Below, one piece after another: positions 33,900 through 64,000 of a stretch of 64,000 nt of DNA. The position numbers and the translations under genes are program-made. Source of the DNA: Candidatus Bathyarchaeota archaeon (GTDB lineage: Archaea; Thermoproteota; Bathyarchaeia; Bathyarchaeales; Bathycorpusculaceae). A model generated the notes under the pieces. That model had not been told where the DNA came from. It made no database searches and was given only the letters and a program-made list of their open reading frames with translations. Each line of letters begins with the position of its first letter. Position 1 is the stretch's first letter. The stretch lies in assembly GCA_963717465.1 (NCBI GenBank), contig OY970340.1, positions 1,600,001 through 1,664,000 on the forward strand, written 5' to 3'.

Positions 33900-33915
33900 A
33901 TAAGGAGGTAAAAAA

Positions 33916-35566: not shown

Positions 35567-35576
35567 GAGAAATAAA

Positions 35577-45069: not shown

Positions 45070-47469
45070 TCATTCTTTGGAGGATATTGGTTGAACTTCT
45101 TGTTTTGCGTTGATCTTTTGCATGAGGTTTTTTCTGACGTCTTCTTTTAGTGGTCCCATTTTCGAAATTCTATTGTTGAATACTTCAAAGACGTTTATTA
45201 TTTTGTTGTATTCTGGGAGCGTAGTCGAATACGATATTATCCGCATCGGTTCGATATTGTAAGCGCTTAAATCTTTTTTCAACTGGTTGGTATATTCCCG
45301 CAAGGCGTCTTCGCTGAACACGCCGCCATGATCTTCAAACATTATAACACCGTCAGCTCCATAAGCAAAAGCGTGCAACAAATGCTTCAAGCCTATACGT
45401 CCTGTACTGGGAACTCTTATTATTTTGACGTTTGCTGGGTAAGTTGCTCGGCTTTGTCCTGCTAAATCTGCAGCTCCATAGGCGATTTCTTTTTCAAGAA
45501 ACGCTACTAGCTTTGGTGTCATGCTGTAATCGCTGACACTGTGAATTTGAGCCATTAACTGTTCTTCAGTTGAATTATTGAGGTTGATTGCTTCTTTTGG
45601 ACACTTTGGCACGCAGATTCCGCATCCAATGCACGAAATAGAATTGACGGTTATGGCTTTCGATGACTTTTCAATCGCTGAGACTGGGCATACTTTTATG
45701 CATATTTCGCAGCTGTCACATTTCTTCGGATCTATGTATGCCACTTCTGGGGAGATTGAGATTTCACCTTTGCCCAAAAACGTAGCTACTCTTGACGCAA
45801 CTGCCGACGATTCTAAGGTTGTCTCTCTGATATCTTTTGGACTTACAGCGCACCCGGCGATGAATATTCCTTCTCGTTGACTATCAACTGGTTTTAGCTT
45901 GTAGTGCTTTTCTACGAGGAACTCGTCTGATCCAATCTGAATTCCAAGTTTTTTAGCTAATTCCTGAGCACCTGAAGCTGGAGTAATTCCGAGAACTAGC
46001 ACAACTAAATCGAAAACTCCTTCAATGGGGCATCCGACAAGGGTATCCTCTGCTTTTACTAATAAATCGCCGCTCTTTAATGGTAAAATTTCGGCTACAC
46101 GCCCTCTAACAAATTTTACGTTATGCTCTCTGGCTTTAGCGTAAAACTCTTCGTATCCCTTTCCATCAGCTCTTATATCAGTGTAGAAAATCCATGGTTC
46201 AGCGTCTGGCACTACTTTTTGAACCAACATTGCTTGTTTAATTGAAGCCATGCAGCCAATCTTACAGCAGTGCTCCACGCCGCCAAGCTCTTTATTCGTC
46301 ATTCGGCTGCCTACGCAAAGGACAAAAGCAACTTTCTTTGCGACTTTCTTATCTGAAGGCCTTTTCATCTCCTGACCTATAAGTCGTTCAAGCTGCAAGT
46401 TGGTTATTACATCTGGATTTAAGCCGAACTTGTATTCCCCAAATTTCTTTGCATCAACAAGTTCAAAGCCTGTTGAAGAAATTACAGAACCAACATCAAG
46501 TTCAATATTTTCTTCCTTTTGGTTAAAATCAATGGCTTTGCCTTTGCAGAATTTCTCGCAGAGTCTGCAAACTCCTTTTGTTAAATATAGACAATGCTCT
46601 TTATCGATTACATACGTCTTTGGGACTGCTTGCTTAAAAGGTGTATAAATGGCTTTTCGAGTTGACAAATTAGCATCAAATTCGCTTGGTACATTGACTG
46701 GGCAAACCTTTTCGCATTCGCCGCATGCGGTACAATTGGCGGCATTAACAAATCTTGGGCTTTTCTTGATTAAAGCTCGGTAGTTTCCTGGAGATCCCTC
46801 AACGGCTTGTACTTCTGCCATTGGAATAATTTTGATGTTAGGATGTTGCGCAACGCTTACCATTTTTGGCGTCAATATGCATTGTGAGCAGTCCAAGGTT
46901 GGGAAAGTTTTGCTTAGTTGAGCCATGTGTCCGCCTATGCTTGGACTTCGCTCCACTAAGTATACTTGATAACCTTTATCTGCAATCTCTATCGAAGTGG
47001 TAATGCCTGCAATTCCGCCTCCAATGACAAGAGTGTCTTTTTTCACTGGAATTGCCTTGGCAGTTAAGGGTTCCAAGTAGCGAGCTCTCGATACTGCGCT
47101 GCGAATTATGTCGATGGCTTTAGAGGTTGCTTCGTCTTTGTTTCCGTGAACCCAACTGCATTGTTCTCTGATATTTGCCATTTCGAGCAAGTAAGGGTTT
47201 AAACCTGCTGCTTCTACGACACGTCTAAATGTGTCCAGATGCATTCGCGGCGAGCAGGATGCTACAACGATTCTGTTTAATCCGTTTTCCTTAATGCCTT
47301 TTTTGATCATTTCTTGCCCTGGGTCACTGCATACGTATTCGTATTTTTCTACGACTTTTACGCCGTCAAGTTTTGAAACAGCTTCTTTTACCTTGGCAAC
47401 GTCAACTGTGTCGCTTATGTTTCCTCCACAGTGGCAAATATAAACTCCGATCTTTGCTTTTTCAGTCAA
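45070..47469 (-). CDS. hdrA: Heterodisulfide reductase subunit A fused to an MvhD-like C-terminal domain
   Basis: GVYICHCG.NI, ASCSPRMH, NIREQCSWVH, IGGGIAG, KTFPTLDCSQC, ferredoxin motifs, CVGSR...CCKIGC, DIRA.GKGYEEFY; MvhD-like tail (YGAADLAG...YP.NVKIIRV...GADGV). Confidence 0.95.
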   Translation of the reverse strand: MTEKAKIGVYICHCGGNISDTVDVAKVKEAVSKLDGVKVVEKYEYVCSDPGQEMIKKGIKENGLNRIVVASCSPRMHLDTFRRVVEAAGLNPYLLEMANIREQCSWVHGNKDEATSKAIDIIRSAVSRARYLEPLTAKAIPVKKDTLVIGGGIAGITTSIEIADKGYQVYLVERSPSIGGHMAQLSKTFPTLDCSQCILTPKMVSVAQHPNIKIIPMAEVQAVEGSPGNYRALIKKSPRFVNAANCTACGECEKVCPVNVPSEFDANLSTRKAIYTPFKQAVPKTYVIDKEHCLYLTKGVCRLCEKFCKGKAIDFNQKEENIELDVGSVISSTGFELVDAKKFGEYKFGLNPDVITNLQLERLIGQEMKRPSDKKVAKKVAFVLCVGSRMTNKELGGVEHCCKIGCMASIKQAMLVQKVVPDAEPWIFYTDIRADGKGYEEFYAKAREHNVKFVRGRVAEILPLKSGDLLVKAEDTLVGCPIEGVFDLVVLVLGITPASGAQELAKKLGIQIGSDEFLVEKHYKLKPVDSQREGIFIAGCAVSPKDIRETTLESSAVASRVATFLGKGEISISPEVAYIDPKKCDSCEICIKVCPVSAIEKSSKAITVNSISCIGCGICVPKCPKEAINLNNSTEEQLMAQIHSVSDYSMTPKLVAFLEKEIAYGAADLAGQSRATYPANVKIIRVPSTGRIGLKHLLHAFAYGADGVIMFEDHGGVFSEDALREYTNQLKKDLSAYNIEPMRIISYSTTLPEYNKIINVFEVFNNRISKMGPLKEDVRKNLMQKINAKQEVQPISSKE

Positions 47470-47484
47470 TTTTCGTTACATCTC

Positions 47485-48372
47485 TTATGCTTTAAGTTTG
47501 TTAACGAGAGTTTGAACTTGGGTTTTATTTTTGTCCAGGCCGATCTCTGCTGGGGTCATACCGAGCGCTAAACCCAAGAGTTGCGTTAGAAAGACTACTG
47601 GTAACTCGTATTTAGTTTTCAACTTTTGATTTATTTCAACTTGTCCGTTATCAAATTGGAGATGACAGAAGGCACATGGTGTGACTACACAATCTGCTCC
47701 AGCACTAAGCATGTTGTCAATCTTTGACCTGGTGAAATCAAGGGCAACATCAATGGCGTCAGATCTCACTCCGCCGCCTGCGCCGCAGCATTGCATTTTA
47801 TCCTTGTAATCAACGCTTTCTGCACCCAATGTTCTAACAAAATCATCGATTATAGTTGGGTTTTCAGCTGAACCGTGTTTTCTCACCGCGCTTGGCTTTA
47901 AAAAGTGGCAACCATAGTGGACTGCAACTTTGATGTTGCTAAGTGGGACTTTTACCTTTTCTTTAATAGCTGAGTAGCCAACATCTTCGTTTAAAACTTC
48001 AATTATGTGTTTTACTTTTGTTGTTCCTTTATATTCTCTATTGACTTCTTTGAAGATATCATTCACCTGATGCTTCAATTCGTCATTTTCCATTAAGAGG
48101 CAGTTAGTCTCCTGAAGTGACCCGTAGCAGCCATTACAGGTAACTGCTATATCCTTATTCATTTGCTCGGCGATAGTAAGGTTTCTTGCACTAATCACAG
48201 CCCATGTTAACATGTCAAAAGAGCCGAAGACTCCTGGAGCAGGGCAGCATGAAGCCCCCTTCATATCCAGTAATTCTATTCCAAAAACTCCAAGTGTTTT
48301 TTTGGTTGCTAATTCAATTCCAGGGTAACGGTTGGGCGCAATACATCCAAGAAAGTAAGCATACTGTTTCAT
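47485..48372 (-). CDS. hdrB: Heterodisulfide reductase subunit B
   Basis: YFLGCIAPNRYPGIE, SCCPAPG, CNGCYGSL, HYGCH, CCGAGGG and CAFCHLQFD motifs. Confidence 0.96.
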   Translation of the reverse strand: MKQYAYFLGCIAPNRYPGIELATKKTLGVFGIELLDMKGASCCPAPGVFGSFDMLTWAVISARNLTIAEQMNKDIAVTCNGCYGSLQETNCLLMENDELKHQVNDIFKEVNREYKGTTKVKHIIEVLNEDVGYSAIKEKVKVPLSNIKVAVHYGCHFLKPSAVRKHGSAENPTIIDDFVRTLGAESVDYKDKMQCCGAGGGVRSDAIDVALDFTRSKIDNMLSAGADCVVTPCAFCHLQFDNGQVEINQKLKTKYELPVVFLTQLLGLALGMTPAEIGLDKNKTQVQTLVNKLKA

Positions 48373-48950
48373 TTTTTAACCTCTCCCTTAACTGCTTTTT
48401 CTGCAACGAGAACCTTAAATCCTGTTTTTTCAAGTAACTTGTTTATTTCTTTAAGTCCCTCAGGATCACTGAGAGTAGTTGGCGGAACCTCTGATAGTCC
48501 CATGTTTTTTCTAACTGCTTTCATTTCATCATTAATAGGCACGGCATGCCCACTCGCCATGAAAGCTTTGGCGATTTTTCTATGTGATTCTTTTATGTTG
48601 CCATTTTTCACGGCCATGTTTCTGAGAATTCTAACTATGTCAGTAGTGTGAATGCCTCGGGGGCACCTTTCTTGACAGGTATAACAAGTAGTGCATTTCC
48701 ACAAATCATCACTCGAAAGAACTTTATCTTTTAATCCTGTCGAAGTCTCTTCAAAAATTTTTCTAATTCGCCATGAAGTTCGTCTTCCAGAGGGGCAGCC
48801 TCCGACACACCTTCCGCATTGAAGGCATTGTCTAAGTTTTTCTATTTCTTCCTTGTTATAGAATTTTGAACCAGCATCTATAACTTCATTGCGAAAATTA
48901 AATGATGCGTCTTGAATAACTTCTTTCTTTGGAGCCATCCTTATCCCCAT
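48369..48950 (-). CDS. hdrC: Heterodisulfide reductase subunit C
   Basis: CLQCGRCVGGCPS, LWKCTTCYTCQERCPR and GHAVPI motifs. Confidence 0.95.
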   Translation of the reverse strand: MGIRMAPKKEVIQDASFNFRNEVIDAGSKFYNKEEIEKLRQCLQCGRCVGGCPSGRRTSWRIRKIFEETSTGLKDKVLSSDDLWKCTTCYTCQERCPRGIHTTDIVRILRNMAVKNGNIKESHRKIAKAFMASGHAVPINDEMKAVRKNMGLSEVPPTTLSDPEGLKEINKLLEKTGFKVLVAEKAVKGEVKK

Positions 48951-49196: not shown

Positions 49197-50222
49197 ATGG
49201 ATTTAAAAGAAAGGTTTCTTGCTTCAACGAAGCGTAAACCAGTTGATAGAGTTCCTTGTGCAAGTCCCCTTCAAACGGCAACAGTAGATTTAATGAATAA
49301 ATGTGGCGCGAGTTGGCCTGAAGCTTTTAGAAATGCAGAGAAAATGGCTACTCTTTCCGCTGCAGCTTACGAAATAGGCGGAATTGAAAGTGTTCGAGTG
49401 CCTTTTGACTTATCCGTCGAGGCAGAAACGTTGGGCTGCAAAATTAAACCAGGCTTGGTCAACGTCCAGCCGCAAACATTAGAAGGCATAATTAATAGTC
49501 CCGATGATGTTGGCAAAGTGAAGGTTCCTGATCCGAAAACAGCTGAACCTATGGCAACAGTCTTAAAAGCAGTAAAGATTCTCAAAGGAAAGTATCCCGA
49601 CAAAGTACCTATTATCGGTGCAGCTTTGGGTCCCATGACGCTAGCCGGACACGTTAATGGTATAGAAAAATTTTTGGTGGCCTTGAGAAAGCAACAGGAT
49701 TTTGCCAGATCAATTCTTGATTTTGCAACGCAAGTTTCAACAACTTATTCGCTTGCGCTAGTTGAAGCTGGCGCTGACGTCATAAGTTTAATAGATCCCT
49801 CAGCAACTGGGGAAATATTAGGGCCAAGGTTCGAAAAAGAGTTCGCTACTCCATACACCAAGAAAGTGGTTGAGCAAATACACAAAGCAGGAGTACCTGT
49901 AATCTTACATATCTGCGGCAAATCTACCATTATTTGGGATTCTATGGTTGAGACTGGATCAGACATGCTCAGCATCAGTGAGCAAGTTGACATGGCTGAA
50001 GCAAAACAAAAAATAGGCAGCAAAGTTGCTCTTGCTGGCAACATTAATCCGATTCAGACTTTGCAGTTTGGGACACCGCAAGACGTGGAGAAAGCAGTCA
50101 AAGAATGCATAGAAAAGGGCGTAGATAACCTTTGCCCAGGTTGCGGATTCACACCGAATACATCACTAGAAAACATGAAGAAAATGACAGATGCGTGCAG
50201 AGCTGTAGGAGCCAAACGATAA
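49197..50222 (+). CDS. mtaA: Methylcobamide:CoM methyltransferase (MtaA/MtbA-like, UroD fold)
   Basis: QTATVDLM...WPEA, RVPFDLSVEAE, Zn-binding LHICG and PGCG motifs. Confidence 0.8.
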   Translation: MDLKERFLASTKRKPVDRVPCASPLQTATVDLMNKCGASWPEAFRNAEKMATLSAAAYEIGGIESVRVPFDLSVEAETLGCKIKPGLVNVQPQTLEGIINSPDDVGKVKVPDPKTAEPMATVLKAVKILKGKYPDKVPIIGAALGPMTLAGHVNGIEKFLVALRKQQDFARSILDFATQVSTTYSLALVEAGADVISLIDPSATGEILGPRFEKEFATPYTKKVVEQIHKAGVPVILHICGKSTIIWDSMVETGSDMLSISEQVDMAEAKQKIGSKVALAGNINPIQTLQFGTPQDVEKAVKECIEKGVDNLCPGCGFTPNTSLENMKKMTDACRAVGAKR

Positions 50223-50680
50223 ATTCAAAGGCATGCAGCTTAAACAGCCCTCTCTTTTATTTTAGCGGTATGTAACTGCTCAGAAATGTTTATAATAAAT
50301 TTTCGCAAATTTCGTAATTTTCTAACCCTTTCTCAACATTTTTGCCAGCATGTAGTGTGTATTATTCGTCAATAAACGAAATACATACCTTTCCATGCAC
50401 GTTTAGTGTTTTGGCACTCTATAAGGTAGGTCCGTGAGCGTCGCGCAGCCTTTCGGCAGTGCGCGCTAAATTGCGTCTTGTTAAGTTCAATAGTTGCTCA
50501 AAGAGTTTATTATAACCTTGAAGGATGTATTCAATGACTTCTCCTTTATCATTAAAGACAAGCTCACAGACTTGAACGTCTACATTAAGCATTCTAAAAG
50601 TTTAAGACAATTATCAAAACTATTTTGGAAGATATCTTGAACGATTTGTTTTTCTTCCATAAATCCCAATAATTAATTAT

Positions 50681-50722
50681 TTCTGATTAGGTACTTTATT
50701 AATTCTGATTAGGTATTTTATT
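50681..50722 (+). repeat. Two-copy tandem repeat (22-bp period)
   Basis: TTCTGATTAGGTACTTTATT-aa-TTCTGATTAGGTATTTTATT. Confidence 0.8.
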
Positions 50723-51165
50723 TTTTAGGTTTAATCTAATTAACATGACAAAACCACAAGCAGAGATGGCTTGAATTGACCTTGTTTTAGTCCAAGCGAA
50801 TGCAAAAACTGGCAGGAAGAAGAGGTGAAGCATTCCACTTTGGATTAAATGTCAATTCAACCAGCCTCATATTTTTGGATTGGGTTTAGTGCGCACTCCA
50901 AATCAATTGTCTTTTGCGTTATGAAAATATCGTAAGCTGCTTTTACGCATTGATTGGCTGCTTCAAAAATATTTTGATTTGAACTATGATTAAATGGTTC
51001 TGTAGGTATTAATCCCTAAATATGTCTTGGGAGAAATGAGTCTTGAAATCGACATTATTGGATTTTGACCTTTTTGGTTTAAGTCGGTAGGCCTAGCGCT
51101 GCTACAATATATTTAATTAATGTTTACTTAAAGGCTTAAATATCAGTAAAATTTCCAAAGCATTT

Positions 51166-52215
51166 ATGACAACTCCATATGATCGATTGATTAATGTTTT
51201 GAGTGGTAAAAAAGCTGAAGTTGATCGACTTCCCGTTATAAACCCTGTCTCCACTTACACATATGATTCTATGAAAGCATATGACGCCTATTGGCCAGCT
51301 GCCCATAGAGATCCTGAAAAAATGGCAAAGCTAGCCGCAGGGCTCCATAGACTTGCAGGCTTAGGTAACGTGACAGTTCCATTTGAATTGACCTTCGAGG
51401 CTGAGATTCTCGGTGCCCCAGTGCAGTTTTTCGAAGACAAGATAAAATGGCCCACTGTTAAGGGTTTTATTGCTCATGAAGTTTCTGACCTTAAATTTCC
51501 CAAGGATATATCAACGGCTGGAAGAATACCAGTTGTTACTAATGCTATTAAAATATTAAAAAGGGAATTCGAAGGCAAAGTCCCAATAATTGCGTACATA
51601 AATTGTCCATTCACCAGCATCAGTAGCTACTTAGTTGAACCAGTCGAATTCCTGAAATCTCTAAGACGTGAACCCGAGAAGGTTCGCGAATTCTACAAAG
51701 CATCCTACCCATTTTATGGTGAAATTGCAAACGCGTTTAAGGAAGCCGGCGCCGACATAATCACATATAGGGAAGAAGGTGTCTCACTTGACAACATCTC
51801 AATCAAGGATTTCGACGAATATGTTAAGCCATATCTCACTAAACTGATTGGTCTCACAAAGTCGCCGAAAATTCTCCACACCTGCGGTTTATGCATAAGC
51901 CGTGAAAAGGAAATTATTGGAAGGATGATAGAATGCGGTGCCGATGCAATTTCCATTGAGGAAAGGACACCAATGAAAGCAGCAAGAGAATTCGCCGACA
52001 AGGCTAAACCAGGTTATCCTATATGCGGAAATGTTGCTCCTTTTTCGGTTATACATAATGGTCCTATTGAAAGAATCAGATTAGCCGTTAAAAAAGCAAT
52101 TGATGAAGGAGTGGATATAGTATCACCTGGCTGCGACTTTTACTTGGAGACCCCGACTGAGCATGTGAAGGCTTTCGTCAATGCCGCTATTGAGTTTGGT
52201 ACACAAACAAGGTGA
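51166..52215 (+). CDS. MtaA/CmuA-family methyltransferase, paralog 2
   Basis: YWPAAH.DP.KMAKL, VPFELTFEAE, LHTCG and PGCDF motifs. Confidence 0.85.
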   Translation: MTTPYDRLINVLSGKKAEVDRLPVINPVSTYTYDSMKAYDAYWPAAHRDPEKMAKLAAGLHRLAGLGNVTVPFELTFEAEILGAPVQFFEDKIKWPTVKGFIAHEVSDLKFPKDISTAGRIPVVTNAIKILKREFEGKVPIIAYINCPFTSISSYLVEPVEFLKSLRREPEKVREFYKASYPFYGEIANAFKEAGADIITYREEGVSLDNISIKDFDEYVKPYLTKLIGLTKSPKILHTCGLCISREKEIIGRMIECGADAISIEERTPMKAAREFADKAKPGYPICGNVAPFSVIHNGPIERIRLAVKKAIDEGVDIVSPGCDFYLETPTEHVKAFVNAAIEFGTQTR

Positions 52216-52628
52216 GGAAGTCTGTCAACTTCGTTAGGGAAATCTAAAGGTAAATTTTCGAGGAAACGTTAAGGATTATAATCGGCAAACCTCTTCTTTC
52301 GGCACTTGCCAATAAGCTTGGCATGTCGAAAAGTCTTTATTTTTTCTTTACATTTTTTATATGTGTACATTACTTAGAAAAGCATGTGCTCTGTAACTTA
52401 CCTTTCAACTATTATCCTTATTGTGAAAGCGTTCGCCATGAAGAAAGAGTTGATGAATTAATCGAAAAATAAACAGTCACTTTAAGAATTTTTTACAACA
52501 TTAAGAGATAAAGGTAATACTTAACGAATTTGACAGAAATCGGCAGGTTATGGGCAAATAAAGAAGAAGTTTACAAAAAAGTAAAAATATAGGTGTTTTT
52601 TGCTAAAAAACAACAGGTGAACAAAGAC

Positions 52629-53589
52629 ATGTTTAAATTTAAATCTCAACAAAAAATTTTCAAGATAGGAAATGTGAGTATAGGTGGACAGCCGGGAGAA
52701 CTCCCGAAGGTGCTGTTCGGAACCATTTTTTATGGCAAACATAAAATCGTAGAGGACCAGAAAAAAGGCATTTTCGACAGGAAAAAGGCAGAGGAACTGA
52801 TAAATAAACAAGAAGAGCTTTCTGATCTTACTGGTAACCCTTGCGGGTTAGATGTTGTATGCATCTCGCTTGAGTCAGCTTGTAAGTTCATCGATTTTGT
52901 TGCAGAGACAACTGATTGTCCGATTTCAGCAGATATTTGGACGCCCGAGATTAAAATTAAAGTTCTAAATCATATTGCTGAGGTAGGTCTTTCAGATCGA
53001 ATCATTTACAACAGTGTGATGTCAGTTCCGTTGCCCAGCGAAGATGAACTTAATGCTATTAGAGAGTCAAAGGTTAAGTCAGCTGTAATTCTATGTTACA
53101 ACACAAAGGATCGTACGACCAAAGGTGTTTTGTCTTTGCTCAGGGGCACTGAAGAGCAAAAGGGCTTGCTGGACATAGCTCAGGGAGCAGGAATAGAAAA
53201 GCCATTAGTTGACGCAACCATCTTTACATACATTCCAAGCATAGGCGTTGGAGCTAGAGCATGTTACTTAGTAAAAGATGAATTCGGTCTTCCAGTGGGC
53301 GGTTCACCTGGAAACGCAACTACTGTTTGGAAAGAACCAAAAAAGTGGGGACAAGATATCTTTAAAGCGTGTGAAGCAGCGGCAGAAGTTGTACCTTTAG
53401 CCTTAGGCGCAGATTACCTGTTTTATGGACCAGTTGAGTCGGCCCCTTGGGTATTTCCAGCCTGCGCTGGAGTTGACGCAATGATTGCCAGCAGCAGCTA
53501 AAACTGAATTCGGAATAAAAACCTTGACGAAAGAGCATCCACTGTATAAATTATTCCCCGAAATCGTTAAAAAGTTAGACATTGAATAA
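52629..53589 (+). CDS. mtrH: MtrH-like pterin:corrinoid methyltransferase (frameshift near 53490)
   Basis: MFKFKSQQKIFKIG...IGGQPGELP..L.GTIFY..HKIV.D..KG.FD, GADYLFYGPVE; shifted tail AAKTEFGIKTLTKEHPLYKLF. Confidence 0.85.
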
Positions 53590-53609
53590 GAATAAAGAGA
53601 TGATGCAAT

Positions 53610-54650
53610 ATGGTTGAATTGACTTCTTATGACAGAGTCATGGCTGTTTTAAACGGCAAGAAAAGTTCTGTTGATAGGCTTCCTTGCATAAACTCTGTTA
53701 GTGTAAGCACGATTGATTTCATGAAGTCTTATGATGCTTATTGGCCAGCCGCACACAAAGACCCTGTGAAAATGGCCAAACTTGGCTCGGCGGCTCACAG
53801 ATTATGTGGTCTTGATAACGTGACAGTACCATTTTGTATGACAGTTGAAGCGGAGGCACTTGGAGCGGTGATTAATTTTCACGAAGACACAATAAAGTGG
53901 CCCTCAATTAAAGAATTTCACGTGAACGAGCCTTCAGATCTTAAATTTCCCAATGACGTATCAACAGCTGGAAGAGTTCCAGTCGTCATTGAAGCAATCA
54001 AAATATTGAAAAAAGAATTTGAAGGCAAAGTTCCCGTAAATGCTTACATAACACCACCATTCACGAGCATCAGCAGTTACCTAGTGGACAGCGTTACTTT
54101 CTTGAAGTGGCTGAGAGTTTCGCCAGAAAAGGTTCATCAATTCGTAAAAAGCGCTAACGATTTTTACGCAAAAATAGCAAAATTATACGAAGAAGCTGGG
54201 GCTGACATAATTACTCTTCATGAGATGGGTGCTTCTACAGATAACATATCACCGAGACATTTTGATCAATTCGTTAAGCCTTATATCGTTGACTTGATTA
54301 AGCCTTTGAAGGCAAAAACGATTTTGAACATTTGCGGAGATGCTAATATGATTGTTGACAAAATGGTTGGAACTGGTGCAAGTGCCATATCAGTAGATGA
54401 GAGAACAAAAATTAGCGGAGTTAGAAATGCAGTGGATAAGATTAAGCCAGGTTATCCTGTCGCCGGTAATTGCCCATCCTACACAGTGATACACTTAGGT
54501 ACTGTCGAAAAAATAAGGGACTATGTCAAGCAAAACATCCAAGATGGCGTTGATATTGTGGCTCCCGGTTGTGATTTTTGGCTAGAGACTTCTGTTGATC
54601 ATGTGAAGGCTTTTATTGATGCAGCCAAAGAATTTGGGAAACTACAATGA
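53610..54650 (+). CDS. MtaA/CmuA-family methyltransferase, paralog 3
   Basis: Close paralog of 51166; VPFCMTVEAE, LNICG (His replaced by Asn) and PGCDF motifs. Confidence 0.85.
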   Translation: MVELTSYDRVMAVLNGKKSSVDRLPCINSVSVSTIDFMKSYDAYWPAAHKDPVKMAKLGSAAHRLCGLDNVTVPFCMTVEAEALGAVINFHEDTIKWPSIKEFHVNEPSDLKFPNDVSTAGRVPVVIEAIKILKKEFEGKVPVNAYITPPFTSISSYLVDSVTFLKWLRVSPEKVHQFVKSANDFYAKIAKLYEEAGADIITLHEMGASTDNISPRHFDQFVKPYIVDLIKPLKAKTILNICGDANMIVDKMVGTGASAISVDERTKISGVRNAVDKIKPGYPVAGNCPSYTVIHLGTVEKIRDYVKQNIQDGVDIVAPGCDFWLETSVDHVKAFIDAAKEFGKLQ

Positions 54651-54740
54651 TAAAGAGGAATACTTTACAAAAAAGTATTTATTCCTGCAACAAAACTCAC
54701 GAAACTTAAAGAACTAATAATTTAATGGAGAGAAAAAATA

Positions 54741-55427
54741 ATGAGTGAAACTGAAATATTTAAGAAACTTTCTGATGCAGTTGATACTGGAAACGTTGAG
54801 ATGGCTAAAGAGGCTGCTAACGAGGCTATCGCTAAGGGCGTTCCAGCTTTGAAGGCGATTTTGAATGGGCTTGCAGAAGGAATGAGAATTGTTGGCGTAA
54901 AATACGAAGAAAAGGAATATTTCTTGCCTGACATGCTTGCGGCAGCAGATGCAATGTACGCTGGGATAGAACTTTTGACTCCTCATATTCCTGCGGCGGA
55001 TAGAAAATCAAAAGGAAAGATAGTTATGGGTGTTGTAGAAGGCGATGTTCATGACATTGGAAAAAACATTGTAAAAATAATGTTGACGGCTTCTGGATAT
55101 GAAATCGTGGACTTGGGCAAAGATGTGCCAACAGGCGAATTTATTAATAAAGCTAAGAGTGAAGGAGCGCAAGTAATAGCGATGTCAACGCTTATGACGC
55201 CAACGCTCATGTCTATGAAAACAGTAGAAGAAAAACTGAAAGAATCAGGAATGAAAGACACTGTTAAAACTATCATAGGCGGCGGCTCAGTAAGCGAGGA
55301 ATGGAAGAATAAAATAGGTTCAGATGCTTATGGCGCGGATTCTTCAGAAGCTGTCAGCAAAGTTAAGCAGTTGCTAGATAGTATCATGACCGCTGTAGAC
55401 GTAATGAAAAAAGATCAGAAACAATAA
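54741..55427 (+). CDS. Methyltransferase-cognate corrinoid protein (MtaC/MttC-like)
   Basis: Cap domain (GL..GM..VG.KYE..EYFLP); B12 motif GDVHDIGKN, DLGKDVP and IIGG. Confidence 0.93.
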   Translation: MSETEIFKKLSDAVDTGNVEMAKEAANEAIAKGVPALKAILNGLAEGMRIVGVKYEEKEYFLPDMLAAADAMYAGIELLTPHIPAADRKSKGKIVMGVVEGDVHDIGKNIVKIMLTASGYEIVDLGKDVPTGEFINKAKSEGAQVIAMSTLMTPTLMSMKTVEEKLKESGMKDTVKTIIGGGSVSEEWKNKIGSDAYGADSSEAVSKVKQLLDSIMTAVDVMKKDQKQ

Positions 55428-55441
55428 GAAGGTAGACTAGT

Positions 55442-57358
55442 TTGGCTCCTGAAGAAATTGAGATCGTATTTCAGCCCTATGGCAAACGAACAAAGTTTCC
55501 ATCGGGCATCAACCTTTTAGATGCCGCCAAAGGTTTAGGCATAGATTTATCTTCACTATGCTCAGGAAAAGGCACTTGCGGAAAATGCAAAATCAAGATT
55601 CAAAAAGGAGCAGAGGGTTTAAGTCCCCTCACAGAAAAGGAATCAAAGCGCCTATCCCAAGAGGAACTTGACACATCCCACAGATTAGCATGCCAAGCTA
55701 CAATAACAAACTCTGCAATAATCTATGTTCCACTAACAAGCAGAGTGGGAGTTCAGAGACTACAAACTGACGGGCTTGATGTACCAGTAAAACCCAACCC
55801 CTTCGTGAGAAAATACTATTTAGAAATGACTCAACCATCACTTCATGACATGAGGTCTGATGAAGACAGAGTTTTTGATGCATTAAACAAGGAGTACGGT
55901 CTTTCTAACGTAAAATTTGACTTTGACACCGCAAAAACTCTTCCAATAAACCTTCGAAAAGAAGATTGCAAAGCAACCGCTGTTGTCTGGAACGACAAAG
56001 AAATTATTGCTCTCGAACCTGGAAATACCTCCGATAGATGCTTTGGACTTGCCGTGGATATCGGATCTACAAAGCTAGCAGGATTCTTGATGGATCTTAA
56101 AACCGGTCAAGTTGTTGCCGTCGCAGCTAGAATGAACCCCCAAATTCCGCTGGGCGAAGATGTCATGTCAAGGATAACCTATGCTATGATGGGTGAGTGG
56201 AAAGCCATCCAGGAACTCCAAACAGCTGTTGTCTCAGGAATTAACGAAATAACTGAGGAATGCTGCAAAAAGGCAAATGTGAAAATTGAAGAAATATACG
56301 AAACCAACTTCGTCGGTAACACAGCAATGCAACTTTGTTTCCTCGGTTTCTGGTCTAGATATGTAGGCTTCTCACCTTACCCGCCAGTACTTCGAAGAGG
56401 TGTTGATGTACGCGCTGCAAGGTTAGGCTTAAAGGCTCACCCAAATGCGAATACGCACTATCTCCCGGTCATTGGAGGTTTCGTGGGAGCAGATAGTATT
56501 GCATGCATCTTAGCATCAAAACTTCTAGAAGAAGATGAAATCAAAATGATTATCGACGTAGGCACAAACACTGAAATCATGTGCGGAAATAAAGACCTAT
56601 GCATGGCTGACTCTTGTGCATCTGGTCCAGCCTTTGAAGGAATGGAAATAAAATTCGGCATGAGAGCAGCAACAGGAGCTATCGAAAAAATTAGCATTGA
56701 TCCTGATACATTGGACCTTAACTTCAGAACTATTGGAAATGCTCCTGCTGTTGGCATAACTGGATCCGCACTCGTCGACGCTCCAGCTGAGCTTCTGAAG
56801 TCTGGTATAATAAACTTGAGGGGCAACTTTGTTCCAGAAATGATGAAGAGAACTGATAGATTAAGAAAGGGATCTAGCGGCTGGGAATTTGTGATAGCGA
56901 GAAAGAATGAAACAAGCATCGGCACAGATGTCGTTTTAACCTTAGCTGATGTTAGAGCACTCCAGCAGGCAAAAGCTGCAATGCACGTTGGAGCAGACAT
57001 TCTGATGAAAAGGATGAACATTCCAATAGAGAAACTGGATAAACTGGTGATTGCTGGGGCCTTCGGAAACTATATCGACGCCGAAAACGCAAGGACAATC
57101 GGCATGTATCCTGAAGTGCCGCTTGAAAAGATCGCTTTCGTTGGAAACCTTGCTGGCACAGGTTCTAGACTTGCTTTGATTTCAAAAGAAGAAAGAGCGA
57201 AAGCTGAAGAAATAAGCAAAAAGGTAAAGTACTATGAACTTGCAGTGGATCCTGAATTCCAGACAGAATATGCGAAGTCACTGTACTTCCCGCACTCTGA
57301 CCTGGATAAGTATCCAAGCACTAAAGAATTACTGAAGAAGTTAGGTCGCATTCCTTAA
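55442..57358 (+). CDS. ATP-dependent reductive activator of corrinoid proteins (RACo/DUF4445, ASKHA fold)
   Basis: N-terminal 2Fe-2S (CSGKGTCGKC...RLACQ); DIGSTK, NPQ..G.DVMSRI, GFVGAD, DVGTNTE, ASGPAFEG and AGAFG motifs. Confidence 0.92.
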   Translation: MAPEEIEIVFQPYGKRTKFPSGINLLDAAKGLGIDLSSLCSGKGTCGKCKIKIQKGAEGLSPLTEKESKRLSQEELDTSHRLACQATITNSAIIYVPLTSRVGVQRLQTDGLDVPVKPNPFVRKYYLEMTQPSLHDMRSDEDRVFDALNKEYGLSNVKFDFDTAKTLPINLRKEDCKATAVVWNDKEIIALEPGNTSDRCFGLAVDIGSTKLAGFLMDLKTGQVVAVAARMNPQIPLGEDVMSRITYAMMGEWKAIQELQTAVVSGINEITEECCKKANVKIEEIYETNFVGNTAMQLCFLGFWSRYVGFSPYPPVLRRGVDVRAARLGLKAHPNANTHYLPVIGGFVGADSIACILASKLLEEDEIKMIIDVGTNTEIMCGNKDLCMADSCASGPAFEGMEIKFGMRAATGAIEKISIDPDTLDLNFRTIGNAPAVGITGSALVDAPAELLKSGIINLRGNFVPEMMKRTDRLRKGSSGWEFVIARKNETSIGTDVVLTLADVRALQQAKAAMHVGADILMKRMNIPIEKLDKLVIAGAFGNYIDAENARTIGMYPEVPLEKIAFVGNLAGTGSRLALISKEERAKAEEISKKVKYYELAVDPEFQTEYAKSLYFPHSDLDKYPSTKELLKKLGRIP

Positions 57359-57700: not shown

Positions 57701-58531
57701 TTATTTTTTTCTTACTTGCTCAAGTTGTTGTATTCTTGTATTCACATCGACAGCTTTGCCCCATAACCCCTCAAAAAATACTCGCAACACTCGAATAAAC
57801 ACTTCGCTATCAGTCCAAAAAGCAACCATATCTTCGCCCATCTTAGATTCCCAAACTAGCATCGCACTTTTATCATCTCCTATTAAAAGTCTATATGTTA
57901 TATTTTCCTCCAAAACTAAACAACGCGATTCTGCATTAATACCTAATTCAATAGTCGTAGCCATAAATCGGTTAACTTTTTCGACTTCTTCACGTTTAAA
58001 ATTGATTAAAGATCTAATTTTCACATTCTTAAAATTGCCTTGTACTATCTGTTCAGAAGATAGTCCCTTAAAATTTGAGACCATCCATAATATCTCTTTC
58101 TTTGCATCAAGAACCACCTGTACGCCTTTTGCAGATATAATTTCTTGCCGTTTAAGAATTAGAAATTTTTCATTATCCGCTATTGGGTAATCAGATGTTA
58201 TTGACTTAAATTGAGCTATGATCTCCTTTTTATCAGCTTCTAAGCAATGAGTTTGTTCTTTCATTGCTTTAATATTCAAGTCTAGAACTTTTTCAATTGG
58301 AACAGCAATATATGCCATTGGGCGGTCTATTGTTGATTCTACGATGCCCTTACTTTGTAAACTCTTTAGAGCACGATATGTATCCCCTTTATGGAGTCTT
58401 AGTCTGTTTATAATTTCCTTAGCATTGGTAGGGACTTGATTTTTTGCGAGGTAAAGGAAAACTTCTTGCTCTTTTTTAGTCAGCCCCAGTTTTGTAAGAA
58501 TCTCTGATAACTGATTGTTGTATCCATTCAT
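57701..58531 (-). CDS. TrmB-family transcriptional regulator
   Basis: LGLTKKEQEVFLYL...YRALKSLQSKGIV...RP..Y.AV N-terminal wHTH; C-terminal effector-domain-like region. Confidence 0.85.
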   Translation of the reverse strand: MNGYNNQLSEILTKLGLTKKEQEVFLYLAKNQVPTNAKEIINRLRLHKGDTYRALKSLQSKGIVESTIDRPMAYIAVPIEKVLDLNIKAMKEQTHCLEADKKEIIAQFKSITSDYPIADNEKFLILKRQEIISAKGVQVVLDAKKEILWMVSNFKGLSSEQIVQGNFKNVKIRSLINFKREEVEKVNRFMATTIELGINAESRCLVLEENITYRLLIGDDKSAMLVWESKMGEDMVAFWTDSEVFIRVLRVFFEGLWGKAVDVNTRIQQLEQVRKK

Positions 58532-59106: not shown

Positions 59107-59283
59107 ATGACTGAGTTTGTAGCGGGTTTAAGTCGTAATAAAACTAAAACTCAGATTTTCACCAAGTATTGTATGCGCTGCGATAAACCGTTCAGGCTAA
59201 ATGATAAAGTTGTAAGTCGCCCACGGAGAAATCAACTCCAAAGATACTATCATAAAGATTGCTATGAAGAAATGTTTGTTTAA
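59107..59283 (+). CDS. 58-aa CxxC...HxxC zinc-finger protein (absent from the ORF track)
   Basis: MTEFVAGLSRNKTKTQIFTKYCMRCDKPFRLNDKVVSRPRRNQLQRYYHKDCYEEMFV*; paralog of 38120-38359. Confidence 0.7.
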   Translation: MTEFVAGLSRNKTKTQIFTKYCMRCDKPFRLNDKVVSRPRRNQLQRYYHKDCYEEMFV

Positions 59284-59294
59284 GCACGCGCAGT

Positions 59295-59849
59295 CTTTTT
59301 GCGTGTTTAGCGGACCGATACAACTAGGCAATTCTCTGTTAAGATAAGGCTCCAAGTTTCCACGTGTCAATGTTATAAAATCGCTAACACGTAAGCCTAA
59401 CGACTTGCCAACTGTAATGACGTATTGTTTGGTTAAATTACCTATATCAGCCATTTTCTTTAAATCATCCCTAGTAAACCGATAGTCTTCGGTTTTACGA
59501 CTTGCCTTGTTGTTTTTTACTTTCTTGTGTTCGTAAAACAATTGGCATGTAAAAGTATGTGAAAAAACTTCTAGGCGCAATGGTTGCGGTTTTTGCGTAC
59601 TTGAATGAAACCCTTGTTTTTTAGCCATTGTTTGAATGACATTATTTTGCGTTCCCAGCTATGTTCGGTATCGGTTTTGCGGTCTGCAAGTATTTGGTCG
59701 CCTGTCATGCCTGTAAATTCCAAAAAATTTAACCAGTTGTAAAATTAACCATCCCTCGTTGCATTTAAACTATCCAACCATTCTGTCGAAGCTTTATCGG
59801 TTGGGTCGATAGTTCTTGGGGTTTTAGAGCGGTAAGCGCCTTTTCTCAA
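59295..59849 (-). pseudogene. Tyrosine recombinase/integrase N-terminal remnant
   Basis: FLEFTGMTGDQILADR core-binding-like region and YRFTRDDLKKM...GKSLGLRVSDFITL (catalytic Arg box). Has an in-frame stop and a frameshift, and is truncated before HxxR/Tyr. Confidence 0.75.
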
Positions 59850-60012: not shown

Positions 60013-60054
60013 TCTGAAAGAATATCATAATAAAACCAAAAGGTCATGATCGGA

Positions 60055-61387
60055 ATGAAGTACAAGGACAAAATAGACCTGTATAGTGAGGAAGGAAAAC
60101 TACTTGAGTCTAATGTACCTCTTGAGGCCATTAGTCCAATTTTAAACCCTGCGATTAAGAAAATAATTCATACATTGATGAGATCCGTCGCTGTTAACTT
60201 AGAAGGCATAGAGAAATCTTTGGCAAACGGAACAGTTGGCGGTGAAGGATGTAAGATTCCTGGAAGAGAACTACAACTCGACATTGTGAAAAATGCCAAT
60301 GTCATTGCAGACAAGGTTTTGGAAAAAGTCAGAGCTAAGAAAGGCGATGATGCTGAAGTTCAAATTCTAGCTGGCGGAAAACAACTCCTAGTTAAATCTC
60401 CAACTCTGAGACTCGAAGCTAGTGCTGAATACACAACATCTTTAACTAACATTGCATCAGCTGTGACGCAAACGATCATTGATGTATTCAACGTATCAAT
60501 GTTCGATGCGGATATGGTTAAAGCAGCTGTTTGGGGCAGGTACCCACAATCAATTAATCTAATGGGCAGTAATCTTGCCTCTGTCCTAGGTGTGCCACAG
60601 GCAAACGAGGGCTTAGGTTACGCTCTAAGAAACATATCCGCGGCTTATGTAGCAATGATATGCAAGAAGAACGCTTTAAACACAGCAGCCTTATCCTCAA
60701 TACTTGAACAGATCAGCAGCGTTCGAAATGGGAGACGCAATCGGCGACTTTGAAAGAATGCAACTTCTCGGACTCGCATTCCAAGGATTAAACGCTAACA
60801 ACCTCGTTTACGACCTTGTTAAGGAAAACGGTAAAACCGGAACAGTCGGCACTGTTATTACCAGCCTCGTAAAACGTGCACTCAAAGACAAAGTTATACG
60901 ACCTCTTGAAAAGAACGAATCAGGTTTTGTTACATATACTACTGACGACATGGCGCTCTGGAACGCATACGCAGGAGCTGGATTATTAGCAGCCACAATG
61001 ATAAGCCAAGGCGCAATGAGAGCTATGCAAGGAGTTTCAGCAGTAGTAGTATATTTCAACGACATGCTCGAACACGAAACAGGATTGCCCTCAGTCGAGT
61101 TCGGCAAATCCATGGGTTCAGGAGTTGAATTCTCATTCTTCAGCCACTCAATATACGGCGGTGGAAGCCCAGTCGTATTCCACGGAAACCACATCGTGAC
61201 AAGACACAGCAAAGGATTCTCCATACCTCCAGTCGCAGCAGCAATCGCACTCGACGCAGGAACAGTTTACTATACACCAGAAAAAGTCGCTGGAATAATT
61301 AGCGAAGTTTTCAGCACAATACCAGAACTAAGAGAGCCAATCGCTCATGTAGCAAAAGCTGCTGCAGAAGTGAAGGCCTCTATATAG
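60055..61387 (+). CDS. mcrB: Methyl-coenzyme M reductase beta subunit (+1 frameshift near 60711)
   Basis: [42 protein letters not shown], then [28 protein letters not shown] and [11 protein letters not shown]...[11 protein letters not shown]. Confidence 0.97.
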
Positions 61388-61399: not shown

Positions 61400-61847
61400 G
61401 TGCCAAACACACCCCCTCAATTTTCTTTTAAAAATATTTCTGAAAATAACGAAGAAATCGAAATTTTTCCGAATCGTCTATTAAGCCTTGCAACTTTAGA
61501 AAAAATATTAAATAAAATTTCTAAAATTGAAGAAGTTATCTCTGTAACCTTGCAGGGTCAGCGTCTTCCTAAAGAAGAAGCTACTTGCGCTTGTGAAGCT
61601 GAAAACCAAGTTGAGAGCAGAAAGATTCTTGTGCAAAATCAGGAAATTGAAATTCACATCATGACTGGTCGAATAATTCTCGAAGTGCCAAGCCAAGAAA
61701 CTGAAAAAGTTATCAAAAAAATTAAGAAAATATCTGATCAACTGTCTTCCATTTGGCTATAGTATTAGAGTTGGCAAATTCCTTAAAAGAAACGTGTCAC
61801 TAGCTGATTATAAGAGAGAATGGTTTCAAAATATCTCCAAAAAATAA
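61400..61847 (+). CDS. mcrD: McrD (frameshift near 61746)
   Basis: IEIFPNRLL...T.EKILN, GQRLP and GRII motifs; shifted tail LPFGYSIRVGKFLKRNVSLADY. Confidence 0.88.
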
Positions 61848-61875
61848 TTCGTATCTTTAAGATTCTTAGGAGTCG

Positions 61876-62545
61876 ATGATAAAGTTGCCTGGTGGTTCTT
61901 GTCGCAGAATGGAGAAGCCTTGCATAGGCAAAAAGACACAGTTTATCGATTGCCGAGAGGTAATGGGTTTAGGTTTAGGTGGAGGATTAGCGCAACGTGG
62001 AACTCTCGCTGAAGCGTCTCCTGCAGATGTTATTGTTATAGCTATGTCACCTGGAAGAAGGCATATTACTAAACCCGTTTGCGAAATTACCTCTGCATTA
62101 AGAGAAGCTGGTATCAGTGTGAGTGTTTTGATTTTAGATGCTGGTTCAAGTGTACCACCTGATGCACCTTCCTCAAGACAAGGGTACGGACCAATCTTTG
62201 GTTTGTCTCCAGAAGAATTTGCAAAGAATTTCAAAGCATAAACTTGCAATAATTCATTTGGGAAATGTTAGAGCTCACATTGTTTATAAAGCTCGTGCAA
62301 TTTTGAGAATGGTCAATATTCCTGCGGTTGTTATTTGTCAATGTCCAGTTGATTTTGAGGATTTTGCTGAAGTCGGTGTTAGAACGCGCTTTGTAAAACC
62401 GAATGCGACTGAGGAGCAGACTCTTGGTGAGATTGTTGAAATTGTTACTGACGTGGTAAGGGGTCAAACATGCCCTCGAAGTAAACTCGATGAGATAAGT
62501 GGAAAAGTCAAGTCATCACTAAACTTATTAAGGAAAACAAAATAA
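61876..62545 (+). CDS. mcrC: McrC (frameshift near 62224)
   Basis: [22 protein letters not shown] and [16 protein letters not shown], then [25 protein letters not shown] and VVRGQTCP. Confidence 0.93.
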
Positions 62546-62596: not shown

Positions 62597-63379
62597 TTGG
62601 AAAAATCAGATTATAAGCCTCAATATACCCCTGGCGTCTCCGATGTAGCTAAGAACAGAAGAAACTACATGGACCCAAAGCACAAATTGGAGAAGCTTCG
62701 CTCAATTTCTGACGAATCTCTGATAAGGTTGCTTGGGCATCGCGAGCCTGGAGAAGCCTATAAATCAGTTCACCCACCCCTTGAAGAAATGGGCGAACCT
62801 AAATGCACGATAAGGAAACTTGTTGAACCCACACCTGGAGCCAAAGCTGGTGACAGAATCACATTCATACAATTCACCGATTCTGTGTACTTCTCGCCTT
62901 TGGCACCCTACAGCAGGTGCTGGATGTACATGTCAAGATACAGAGGTGTAGACCCTGGCGCTCTATCAGGAAGATGCCCCCTTGAAATGAGAGAAAGAGA
63001 TTTAGAAGCAGTTTCAAAGGAGCTAATTGAAACAGAAGTTTTCGACCCAGCAAGAACCGCAGTTAGAGGCGCAACAGTACACGGCCACTCTTTGAGACTG
63101 GACGAGAACGGAATGATGTTTGACTTATTAAGACGCTCTGTTTACGACAAGAAGAAGCAAGAAATCACATATGTTAAAGATCAGTTGGGAGTACCGTTAG
63201 ACACGCCAATTGCACTTGGAAAACCGTTACCAGAAGAAGAATTAAGGAAAAGAACAACAATCTTCAGGGCAGACGGAACATCCATACGAAAAGATCCAGA
63301 GCTACTAAAATATATTCAAAGAATTCACACACTAAGAACAATCGCTGGTCATAACCCGGAAAAAGCCAAAGGACTATAA
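62597..63379 (+). CDS. mcrG: Methyl-coenzyme M reductase gamma subunit
   Basis: NRR..MDP..KLEKLR, LLGHR.PGE.YKSVHPPLEE, QFTDS, YRGVDPG.LSGR, RERDLE and RGATVHGHSLRLDENG.MFD motifs. Confidence 0.98.
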   Translation: MEKSDYKPQYTPGVSDVAKNRRNYMDPKHKLEKLRSISDESLIRLLGHREPGEAYKSVHPPLEEMGEPKCTIRKLVEPTPGAKAGDRITFIQFTDSVYFSPLAPYSRCWMYMSRYRGVDPGALSGRCPLEMRERDLEAVSKELIETEVFDPARTAVRGATVHGHSLRLDENGMMFDLLRRSVYDKKKQEITYVKDQLGVPLDTPIALGKPLPEEELRKRTTIFRADGTSIRKDPELLKYIQRIHTLRTIAGHNPEKAKGL

Positions 63380-63405: not shown

Positions 63406-64000
63406 ATGGTTAAGAAAGAAAAAATGTTTTTAGAAGAACTTGAGAAGAAATTCAAGGAAGATCCTACTAAAAAGACTACTACCTACTACCATTTTGGTGG
63501 CTGGAAGCAGTCAAAGAGAAAGCAAGAATTCTACAGAGCTAGCCAAAAGATCGAGAAAGAGAGAGGCATACCGATGTACTCTCCGGATACTTCACTTAGG
63601 TGGTGTACCTGTAGGTCAAAGACTTCTTATGCCCTATAAGATCTCTGGGACAGACGTTTATTGTGAAGGAGACGACTTACATTTCATCAACAACGCAGCC
63701 ATGCAGCAAATGTGGGACGACATAAGAAGGACAGTAATCGTAGGCTTAGATGCCCCGCACAAAGTATTAGAAAGCAGATTAGGCAAAGAAGTAACACCAG
63801 AAACAATAAGCGAATACATGGAAATACTCAACCACACAATGCCTGGAGCAGCAGTAGTTCAAGAACACATGGTTGAAACACACCCCGCACTAGTGTCAGA
63901 TTGCTATGTAAAACTATTCACAGGCAACGATGAGCTTGCAGATGCCATAGACAAAAGATTCGTAATTAACATAAACAAATTATTCCCCAAAGAAAATGCT
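63406..64000 (+). CDS. mcrA: Methyl-coenzyme M reductase alpha subunit (5' part; +1 frameshift near 63589; runs off the window)
   Basis: [12 protein letters not shown]...RGIPMY.PD, then my translation [52 protein letters not shown]...[11 protein letters not shown]...[37 protein letters not shown]. Confidence 0.97.

Follow-up and report, generated by a model that had tools for sequence, protein, structure and literature searches.

How would a soluble methyl-transfer cluster be supplied with methyl groups, and where would it send them, in a sediment-type archaeon whose family is not known to produce methane and otherwise shows no methyl-coenzyme M reductase (Mcr)? The locus that raises this question lies in a 64,000-nucleotide stretch (the window) of a Candidatus Bathyarchaeota archaeon (Bathyarchaeales; Bathycorpusculaceae; GenBank assembly GCA_963717465.1, contig OY970340.1, positions 1,600,001 to 1,664,000, forward strand), where six genes between 49197 and 57358 encode three UroD-fold methyltransferases, an MtrH-like protein, a corrinoid protein and its activator. 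A sequence-only reading had treated them as one cluster. All six genes proved real, with the coordinates and families that it had assigned (PF01208, PF02007, B12-binding, Fer2 and RACo matches), but they are two units: a five-gene cassette (methyltransferase A, the mtrH-like gene, methyltransferase B, the corrinoid gene and RACo) and a separate methyltransferase, here called 49197. In the explanation that fits best, to which we give an even chance, a mobile cassette for methyl-sulfur compounds and an Mcr-linked coenzyme M (CoM) methyltransferase have been joined in one methanogenesis island.

Two gene units at one locus

The six genes and a repeat lying among them were as follows, with paired numbers giving score/cut-off and open reading frames referred to as ORFs below.

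49197..50222, + strand: methylcobamide:CoM methyltransferase (second methyltransferase, MT2) of the MtbA clade, "49197"; URO-D PF01208, E 7e-85; TIGR01463, 324/235
50467..50877, strand not stated: non-coding repeated stretch with no long open frame; blastn E 3e-101
51166..52215, + strand: cassette methyltransferase A, UroD fold, 'CD' clade; PF01208, E 4e-60
52593..53501, + strand: stand-alone MtrH-family methyltransferase; MtrH PF02007, E 2e-86
53610..54650, + strand: cassette methyltransferase B, UroD fold, 'CD' clade; PF01208, E 3e-64
54741..55427, + strand: corrinoid protein with both B12-binding domains; TIGR02370, 216/215 bits; D-x-H-x-x-G motif in the translation
55442..57358, + strand: RACo-type corrinoid activator with an N-terminal 2Fe-2S (Fer2) domain and three RACo domains; PF00111, PF17650, PF17651, PF14574

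We excluded 49197 from the cassette because its distance to 51166 is 943 bp, all non-coding, whereas hdrC, which is divergent to it, begins just 246 bp away. The gaps between the cassette genes from 51166 to 55442 are 377, 108, 90 and 14 bp. The repeat sits between 49197 and the cassette and has one further copy, 80% identical, at 335036-335425 of the genome.

Methyltransferases were placed with a 183-row FastTree, in which representatives of <290 aa were dropped and long ones trimmed, and a 59-row IQ-TREE with Shimodaira-Hasegawa-like approximate likelihood ratio (SH-aLRT) support. 49197 grouped with named Methanosarcina and Methanomassiliicoccales MtbA (support 99 in FastTree and 97 by SH-aLRT), these names being automatic annotations, and is 40% identical to a named Methanosarcina MtbA. 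It shares the zinc motif His-x-Cys...Cys (His238-Cys240-Cys316) with MtbA and MtaA (PDB 4AY7), although it scored below both equivalog cut-offs (331/400 for MtaA and 309/600 for MtbA). In two other assemblies its homologues (86% and 82%) lie on contigs of 196,391 and 46,044 bp, and contigs of equal size carry McrG (91% and 90%); the close homologues of B are on contigs of other sizes. The equal-sized contigs support the conclusion that 49197 travels with Mcr and, together with its clade, agree with its earlier placement as the CoM-side enzyme. A best match of the 49197 type was absent from all cassette loci of our neighbourhood surveys. There is a fourth MtaA-like gene at 744 kb of the genome; this gene and 49197 are candidates for moving methyl groups from the genome's other corrinoid systems onto CoM.

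The MtrH-like protein, whose likelier start is the ATG at 52629, had been read as lacking the other Mtr subunits, and this held for MtrA and MtrE, each with 0 matches in a genome that is 88% complete; in Methermicoccus shengliensis, by comparison, MtrH is found within the membrane Mtr. Against solved structures it matched MtgA (PDB 6SJ8, E 2e-65) better than MtrH (9QTP, E 5e-55). This likeness supports a predicted role like that of MtgA and MtoA, namely methyl transfer from corrinoid to pterin, which is where the sequence-only reading had put it. The activator was also correctly typed as RACo rather than RamA (479 bits on AcsV vs 114 on RamA TIGR04270), and two RamA-type genes are present elsewhere in the genome. 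A second mtrH-corrinoid-RACo copy without A or B, 77% identical in DNA, was found about 900 kb away at 750-754 kb; its mtrH and RACo are interrupted, and an MtaA-like gene and an MttB-like pair adjoin it, as in the cassette loci L068 and L076. A 310-aa ORF beside this mtrH copy was considered as an MtgB and dropped, having no family match and a low-complexity sequence.

Zinc ligands and distribution of methyltransferases A and B

A and B (346-349 aa) share 59% identity with one another and 32-34% with 49197. In both trees these uncharacterised proteins formed sister groups within a clade separate from MtbA, in which the last motif ends Cys-Asp. Their clade adjoins bacterial relatives and an MtrH-UroD fusion (P0409), and its sister clade includes Anaerolineae, Desulfotomaculum, Desulfobacterales and Dehalococcoidales. 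A look-up of 10 sister-clade proteins gave no characterised enzyme, relatives of B in the ESM Atlas carried generic names only, and a plasmid search returned 6 weak records and no reference enzyme.

A has the ligands His238-Cys240-Cys323, with Arg at the column of B's His, while B has lost the canonical His and shows Asn240-Cys242-Cys321 with His204. The N-x-C...C pattern was present in 118 of the 119 B homologues among the matches listed. The 48 tree rows with a Cys-Asp end include 21 with His204 only, 25 with His240 only, 2 with neither and 0 with both, and in the other 135 rows His204 was found in 0 and His240 in 130. This alternation occurs in archaeal and in bacterial branches, and as the rows are related it is a pattern rather than a statistic. 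In the structure model of B (predicted local distance difference test 95.8; template-modelling (TM) score 0.92 to MtaA 4AY7), residues 204 and 240 terminate successive barrel strands, and His204 is plausible as a relocated zinc ligand.

His-Cys-Cys is described as marking sulfur and selenium methyltransferases, and O-demethylases as losing one or both Cys (PMC10418091). By this rule the retention of both Cys ligands in A and B points to sulfur or selenium rather than oxygen chemistry, and methyl-sulfur donors would be the likeliest. A and B match the traits of methylthiol enzymes in their UroD fold, soft Cys zinc ligands and neighbouring corrinoid gene, B without the canonical His. Methoxy-aromatics appear to be unlikely substrates because A and B are neither MtoB- nor MtgB-like; they lack the features of the MtoB/MtvB/CdmB type (47-48 kDa, no His-Cys-Cys), with CdmB as proxy for MtoB, and 53610 as a query retrieved no CdmB from the PDB. 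Nor do they fit the MtbA/MtaA type of CoM MT2 enzyme, as they are not confined to Mcr genomes and do not group with MtbA or MtaA; the earlier suggestion that the second and third paralogs are something other than plain CoM MT2 enzymes is thus upheld by a clade of their own, found mostly in genomes without Mcr.

The closest parallels are the Methanosarcina methylthiol enzymes MtsA/MtsB, MtpA/MtpC and MtsD/F/H (CmtA), described as MtaA-family zinc enzymes which act on the substrate side with a corrinoid, with paralogs of differing methyl-sulfur preferences and a suggested route to pterin as well as to CoM (10.1101/548461; PMC7374477). MtpA is reported as a thioether-specific first methyltransferase (MT1) of the MtaA family (10.1101/548461), MtsD as preferring dimethyl sulfide (DMS) and MtsF as preferring methanethiol (PMC7374477). 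In contrast to these systems, A and B occur as a fixed pair, accompanied by RACo and by an MtrH-like protein with a gene of its own; the cassette is found mostly in non-Mcr archaea, and its B has N-x-C and His204. Nothing was found in the literature on the MtsA zinc motif or on PDB 8Z9U.

We surveyed the cassette with a scan of named genomes and a 57-row profile of the A/B clade. The scan gave 11 cassette loci in Hadarchaeota, Bathyarchaeia and Nitrososphaeria, including Ca. Methylarchaceae. The profile found the clade in 14/400 other Bathyarchaeia and 8/66 genomes of the Hadarchaeota phylum. After merging entries for the same genomes (G211 = G483 and G220 = G491), there were 29 distinct other carriers: 14 Bathyarchaeia, 8 Hadarchaeota and 7 of Nitrososphaeria type. 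In 12 of these carriers A and B sit together at one locus. An MtrH-like gene accompanies them at 6 of the loci, 4 of which run A-mtrH-B; CdhD/CdhE takes its place at 1, and the 5 Nitrososphaeria loci have neither. In the remaining carriers the loci were ended by contig edges, or A or B occurred singly. McrA or McrG was detected in 4 of the 29 (3 full genes and a 42-aa fragment) and in none of the other 25. A strong ComE match was found only in the host genome and G064 among 31 genome entries, and in a metagenome scan with McrG (13 loci) the cassette was at none.

Within the host genus, B as a query at 1e-30 matched 0/119 genomes, and the MtrH-like protein is at most 46% identical to genus proteins, against 73% to a Hadarchaeota cassette gene. 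From this distribution and identity the cassette looks horizontally gained.

Two further arrangements were observed. In five Hadarchaeota (G677, G676, G674, G673 and G672) a solitary B precedes an amidohydrolase gene. In G064, a member of the Bathyarchaeia in which Mcr was not detected, Mmp14, RACo and B are consecutive and ComDE and MtrE are also encoded; this organism is possibly a former methanogen.

The methanogenesis island and its genome

The presence of Mcr in a Bathyarchaeia family otherwise without it is a more surprising result than the methyl cluster itself, and the sequence-only reading missed both this unusual neighbour and the division into cassette and separate MT2. The other features of this part of the window were:

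45070..48950, - strand: hdrC-hdrB-hdrA, HdrA with a fused MvhD-like domain; TIGR03290, 200/160 bits; TIGR03288, 439/345; NF040770, 889 (below its cut-off of 1100); FlpD domain
57701..58531, - strand: TrmB-family regulator, convergent with the cassette; PF01978; 18 further genome matches by tblastn
59197..59628, - strand: truncated ORF with no Pfam match; 33% over 43 aa to a 353-aa unannotated protein of relative G432, E 3e-6
60046..61387, + strand: mcrB in two ORFs; PF02783, PF02241, TIGR03257; one +1 frameshift near 60710
61400..62545, + strand: mcrD and mcrC; TIGR03260, TIGR03264; one +1 frameshift apiece
62597..63379, + strand: mcrG, intact, group II (Thermoproteota) type; TIGR03259, 375/172; tree
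63406..64000, + strand: start of mcrA, which continues beyond the window; two +1 frameshifts

The truncated ORF bears a weak likeness to what we take to be a tyrosine-recombinase remnant. The island extends from 45070 to about 23 kb past the window end, all on a host contig of 3.05 Mb which holds the whole window, and comprises hdrABC, the methyl cluster, mcrBDCGA, marker genes and CoM synthesis genes. After mcrA it continues with Mmp8, Mmp7, a NifB-like gene, Mmp17, Mmp15, Mmp5, Mmp6, Mmp3, AtwA, Mmp2 (which scores below its cut-off), cysteate synthase, comDE and an SsuA-type binding protein; MvhDGA and another HdrA lie further downstream. By its hdr, mcr, Mmp and CoM-synthesis genes we regard the methanogenesis gene set as complete. 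Synteny with 8 stretches of 7 same-genus genomes breaks just past MTAP-APRT(-AsnC), but rearrangement is so common in the genus that this break does not pin down an insertion site. Same-genus orthologues have a median identity of 73%.

McrG was found in 0/119 other genomes of the genus, 0/331 other members of the family and 2/400 genomes sampled from the class. The family, with 332 genomes, is probably Bathy-6, judging from its size and from the pyrroloquinoline quinone (PQQ)-domain proteins encoded in the host genome, PQQ-domain proteins being described as a Bathy-6 trait (PMC11697101). In a 60-row McrG tree without alkyl-CoM reductases, the host protein fell inside the Thermoproteota group II clade (36 rows, support 99/97), on its own deep branch with P0255, while two other Bathyarchaeia McrG grouped with Nezhaarchaeota instead; its sister group was poorly placed and we claim no donor. 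It is 68-73% identical to named group II McrG, and three other assemblies carry McrG at 90-92%. The McrG of G005, a genome of the host's class, is identical to P0272 from a Candidatus Bathyarchaeota archaeon, which identifies this class as Bathyarchaeia. Two studies report no Mcr in Bathy-6 (PMC7886697, PMC11697101), and a 2023 survey of 304 metagenome-assembled genomes (MAGs) reports one canonical Mcr and two of alkyl type (PMC10321748). Our literature search by title and abstract start, with subscription journals thinly covered, found no description of this cassette or of Mcr in the host family; trees or tables of PMC8630106, PMC10321748 and PMC10418091 may already include A/B-clade members.

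Group II methyl-reducers (Methanomethylicia, Korarchaeia and Methylarchaeales) and the Jinwuousiales Mcr are described as having, like the host, a group II McrG, Mmp markers, a stand-alone MtrH, Mvh/Hdr and the lack of a membrane Mtr (PMC10321748, PMC9478090). The host differs in keeping most of the tetrahydromethanopterin (H4MPT) branch and the carbon monoxide dehydrogenase/acetyl-CoA synthase (CODH/ACS), which most group II carriers are said to lack (10.1101/2025.10.16.682713), and in an McrG on its own deep branch, apart from other Bathyarchaeia McrG, in a family otherwise without it. Its genome encodes FwdA, Ftr, Mch, Mer, CODH/ACS, MvhDGA, an Fpo-like complex, cysteate synthase and ComDE.

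The lack of MT1 genes was upheld for the window, where most but not all ORFs were scanned and none matched the MtaB, MttB, MtbB or MtmB families, but does not extend to the genome, where we found 10 distant MttB-like loci (9 closely related genes and 1 more distant) and 6 MtmB-like genes, with no amber stop in the matches and no pyrrolysine in the one aligned. Genome searches returned neither MtaB nor MtbB, and no pyrrolysine-type methylamine MT1 was found, although no search was aimed at pyrrolysine genes. The genome also has 22 corrinoid matches and 4 MtrH-like loci. The alternative of three plain MT2 enzymes, with mttB genes elsewhere supplying the corrinoid, was half borne out, in that MttB- and MtmB-like genes are many but most MT1-like genes adjoin their own corrinoid genes. 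At 1090-1092 kb a corrinoid gene accompanies a 449-aa CdmB/MtoB-type protein (CdmB match E 3e-35), which from its sequence is the strongest candidate in this genome for O-demethylase or haloalkane MT1 activity.

A family of about 420 aa with little or no Pfam match, a candidate new MT1 family, occurs at 9 loci (1512k, 1508k, 87k, 89k, 1375k, 1360k, 1127k, 2824k and 839k), often downstream of corrinoid and TrmB genes. MttB-like and corrinoid genes lie beside split molybdopterin oxidoreductases at 120-133 kb, 1206-1213 kb and 2489-2495 kb; the best family for these is thiosulfate reductase/formate dehydrogenase/dimethyl sulfoxide reductase, all below cut-off, and they may prepare methyl donors. 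There are at least 9 HdrA-like loci and 7 HdrB-like genes. Elsewhere in the window we found a Hox-like group 3 hydrogenase with NuoF- and HoxU-like subunits (2388-7181), a form III RuBisCO in two ORFs with ribose-1,5-bisphosphate isomerase (7376-8663 and 14073-15008), a GlcD-like flavin adenine dinucleotide oxidase, HdrD-like CCG protein, glycerol-3-phosphate dehydrogenase and glycerol kinase (22227-29819), and Cdv cell-division genes (CdvB paralogs, CdvC and a CdvA-like gene; 33234-36743 and 40534-41304). A scan for sigma-70 promoters, which is unsuited to archaea, gave 25 matches where chance alone predicts 28.

Possible routes for the methyl groups

In the reading that we prefer, the zinc enzymes A and B would shift methyl groups between DMS, methanethiol or a related thioether and the corrinoid protein, perhaps each carrying out one step; RACo would hold the corrinoid cobalt as Co(I), and the MtrH-like protein would swap methyl groups between corrinoid and H4MPT. 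In carriers without Mcr, the methyl groups of the cassette would go to acetyl-CoA synthesis. In the host, 49197 would act as the partner of hdrABC and mcr and transfer methyl groups from methylated corrinoid proteins to CoM, and methyl-CoM would then be reduced to methane, probably with H2 via Mvh/Hdr. If 49197 accepts the corrinoid of the cassette, there would be a soluble junction of methyl donors, H4MPT and CoM in place of the absent Mtr pump, without energy conservation, and a single corrinoid for both exits would short-circuit CH3-H4MPT to CoM.

A wider picture can be drawn only tentatively, and it is rather unlikely to hold in all its parts together: the host, probably a member of the Bathy-6 group described in papers as non-methanogenic, would be a working methanogen with its own deep group II Mcr lineage and no membrane Mtr, in which a horizontally gained cassette links the H4MPT pathway, about 20 corrinoid systems and Mcr. 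A and B would together form an as yet undescribed two-enzyme system, with a relocated zinc His, that demethylates methyl-sulfur compounds; non-Mcr archaea and bacteria would use it for acetogenesis or for DMS and methanethiol oxidation.

A number of points weigh against the preferred reading. Moving a methyl group from a thioether onto cob(I)alamin costs ~20 kJ/mol; no sulfur-metabolism genes recur beside the cassette, whereas MttB/MtmB-type pairs do; B is solitary, with no corrinoid gene in the stretch examined, in the five Hadarchaeota, and an S-x-C relative is likewise solitary in 4 Bathyarchaeia. The replacement of B's canonical His by His204 would follow from covariation and strand order, and A and B were likened to MtsA, MtpA, MtsD/F/H, SdmB/C and MtoB by descriptions, the tree being without their sequences. 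The ComE search was also negative in two Mcr carriers, and CoM is therefore possible in other carriers too, many of which are incomplete MAGs. MtaA-like proteins neighbour the cassette in genomes without Mcr as well, so that an MtaA/MtbA-like sequence alone is no proof of CoM use. F420-dependent Mtd was not found in the host genome, no search having been made for the NAD(P) type. Finally, the mcr genes carry five frameshifts, all +1 (mcrA 2, mcrB 1, mcrC 1 and mcrD 1), with mcrG intact.

The rival that survives best is a soluble, CmtA-like bypass of Mtr with no outside donor, in which the MtrH-like protein would methylate the corrinoid at the expense of CH3-H4MPT and one of A, B and 49197 would hand the methyl group on to CoM, bringing methyl from other MT1 systems or acetyl-CoA to Mcr. 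Methyl transfer from CH3-H4MPT to CoM is downhill (~-30 kJ/mol), MtrA and MtrE were not found while most of the H4MPT branch is present, and the B carrier G064 has ComDE, Mmp14 and MtrE. CmtA is described as a soluble enzyme of this kind (PMC7374477). We nevertheless consider such a bypass unlikely, as the cassette is kept in many genomes without detected Mcr, where a CoM route would have no sink; the five Nitrososphaeria A+B loci with no MtrH-like gene in the stretch examined include two full Mcr carriers; and a single MT2 would suffice, making a conserved pair needless.

Somewhat less likely again is that the cassette disposes of methyl groups onto sulfide (giving methanethiol and DMS) or scavenges selenium from (di)methyl selenide, in the manner of Sdm or mlp. 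Several MtaA-like UroD paralogs, a corrinoid protein, a bacterial-type activator (RACE in mlp clusters) and sulfur/selenium chemistry are described for type 1 mlp clusters and for the SdmABC system from Methanococcus voltae, and Mlp2 is described as methylating selenide and, more slowly, sulfide (PMC10418091). ARAGORN made two selenocysteine tRNA calls in the host genome, and the direction of a reaction cannot be read from sequence. However, mlp clusters, which are mostly from Firmicutes, are reported to have no pterin methyltransferase and nearly always His-Cys-Cys (PMC10418091), whereas the cassette often has an MtrH-like gene and its B breaks the motif with N-x-C. No selenium genes recurred beside the cassette among 30 and 26 neighbour proteins scanned.

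It is improbable, slightly more so than disposal, that the island is decaying or misjoined, with the CoM exit a relic and only the pterin exit working. The five shifts fall in ~1,600 aa of mcrBDCA, against 1.0 expected (Poisson P 0.004), with none in ~6,400 aa of flanking genes, and McrG was found in none of the other 331 family members. Against this reading, all five are +1, as were 23 of the 26 shifts, often clustered, in 139 distinct housekeeping orthologues used as a control, and over the whole island (7,990 aa) 5 were seen against 5.1 expected; the frameshifts are likelier to be assembly errors. The tetranucleotide distance of 10-kb windows over the island lies within the 17th-56th percentile, typical of the genome, mtrH-corrinoid-RACo has its diverged copy 900 kb away, and the three other assemblies carry close McrG.

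The O-demethylase for methoxylated aromatics to which the cluster had first been likened is by far the least probable: its parts do equal mtoB1B2-C-A-D of Methermicoccus shengliensis MtoABCD, with two UroD-fold proteins, a corrinoid, an MtrH-like MT2 to H4MPT and a 2Fe-2S activator (PMC8630106), but A and B are MtaA-sized and MtaA-like in structure with both Cys kept, MtoB is described as 47-48 kDa (PMC8630106) and on the MtvB/CdmB branch (PMC13222342), the genome's own CdmB/MtoB-type protein lies elsewhere with its own corrinoid and barely aligns to 53610 (32 bits), the MtgB of Bathyarchaeia is described as ~300 aa without homology to known MT1s (PMC10989822) whereas A and B are of the URO-D family, and there is no aromatic transporter in the cluster.

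On the preferred reading, of a methyl-sulfur cassette joined to an Mcr-linked MT2, A and B are candidates for the enzymes that turn over methyl-sulfur compounds anaerobically where Mcr is lacking, and all five cassette proteins are of soluble type and amenable to a standard Co(I) spectrum assay. The finding, in a very large family, of a canonical Mcr from a lineage of its own, seen in at least 3 further assemblies, gives a concrete mcr target for enrichment, and some members of this very common archaeal group may produce methane by a route not yet described.

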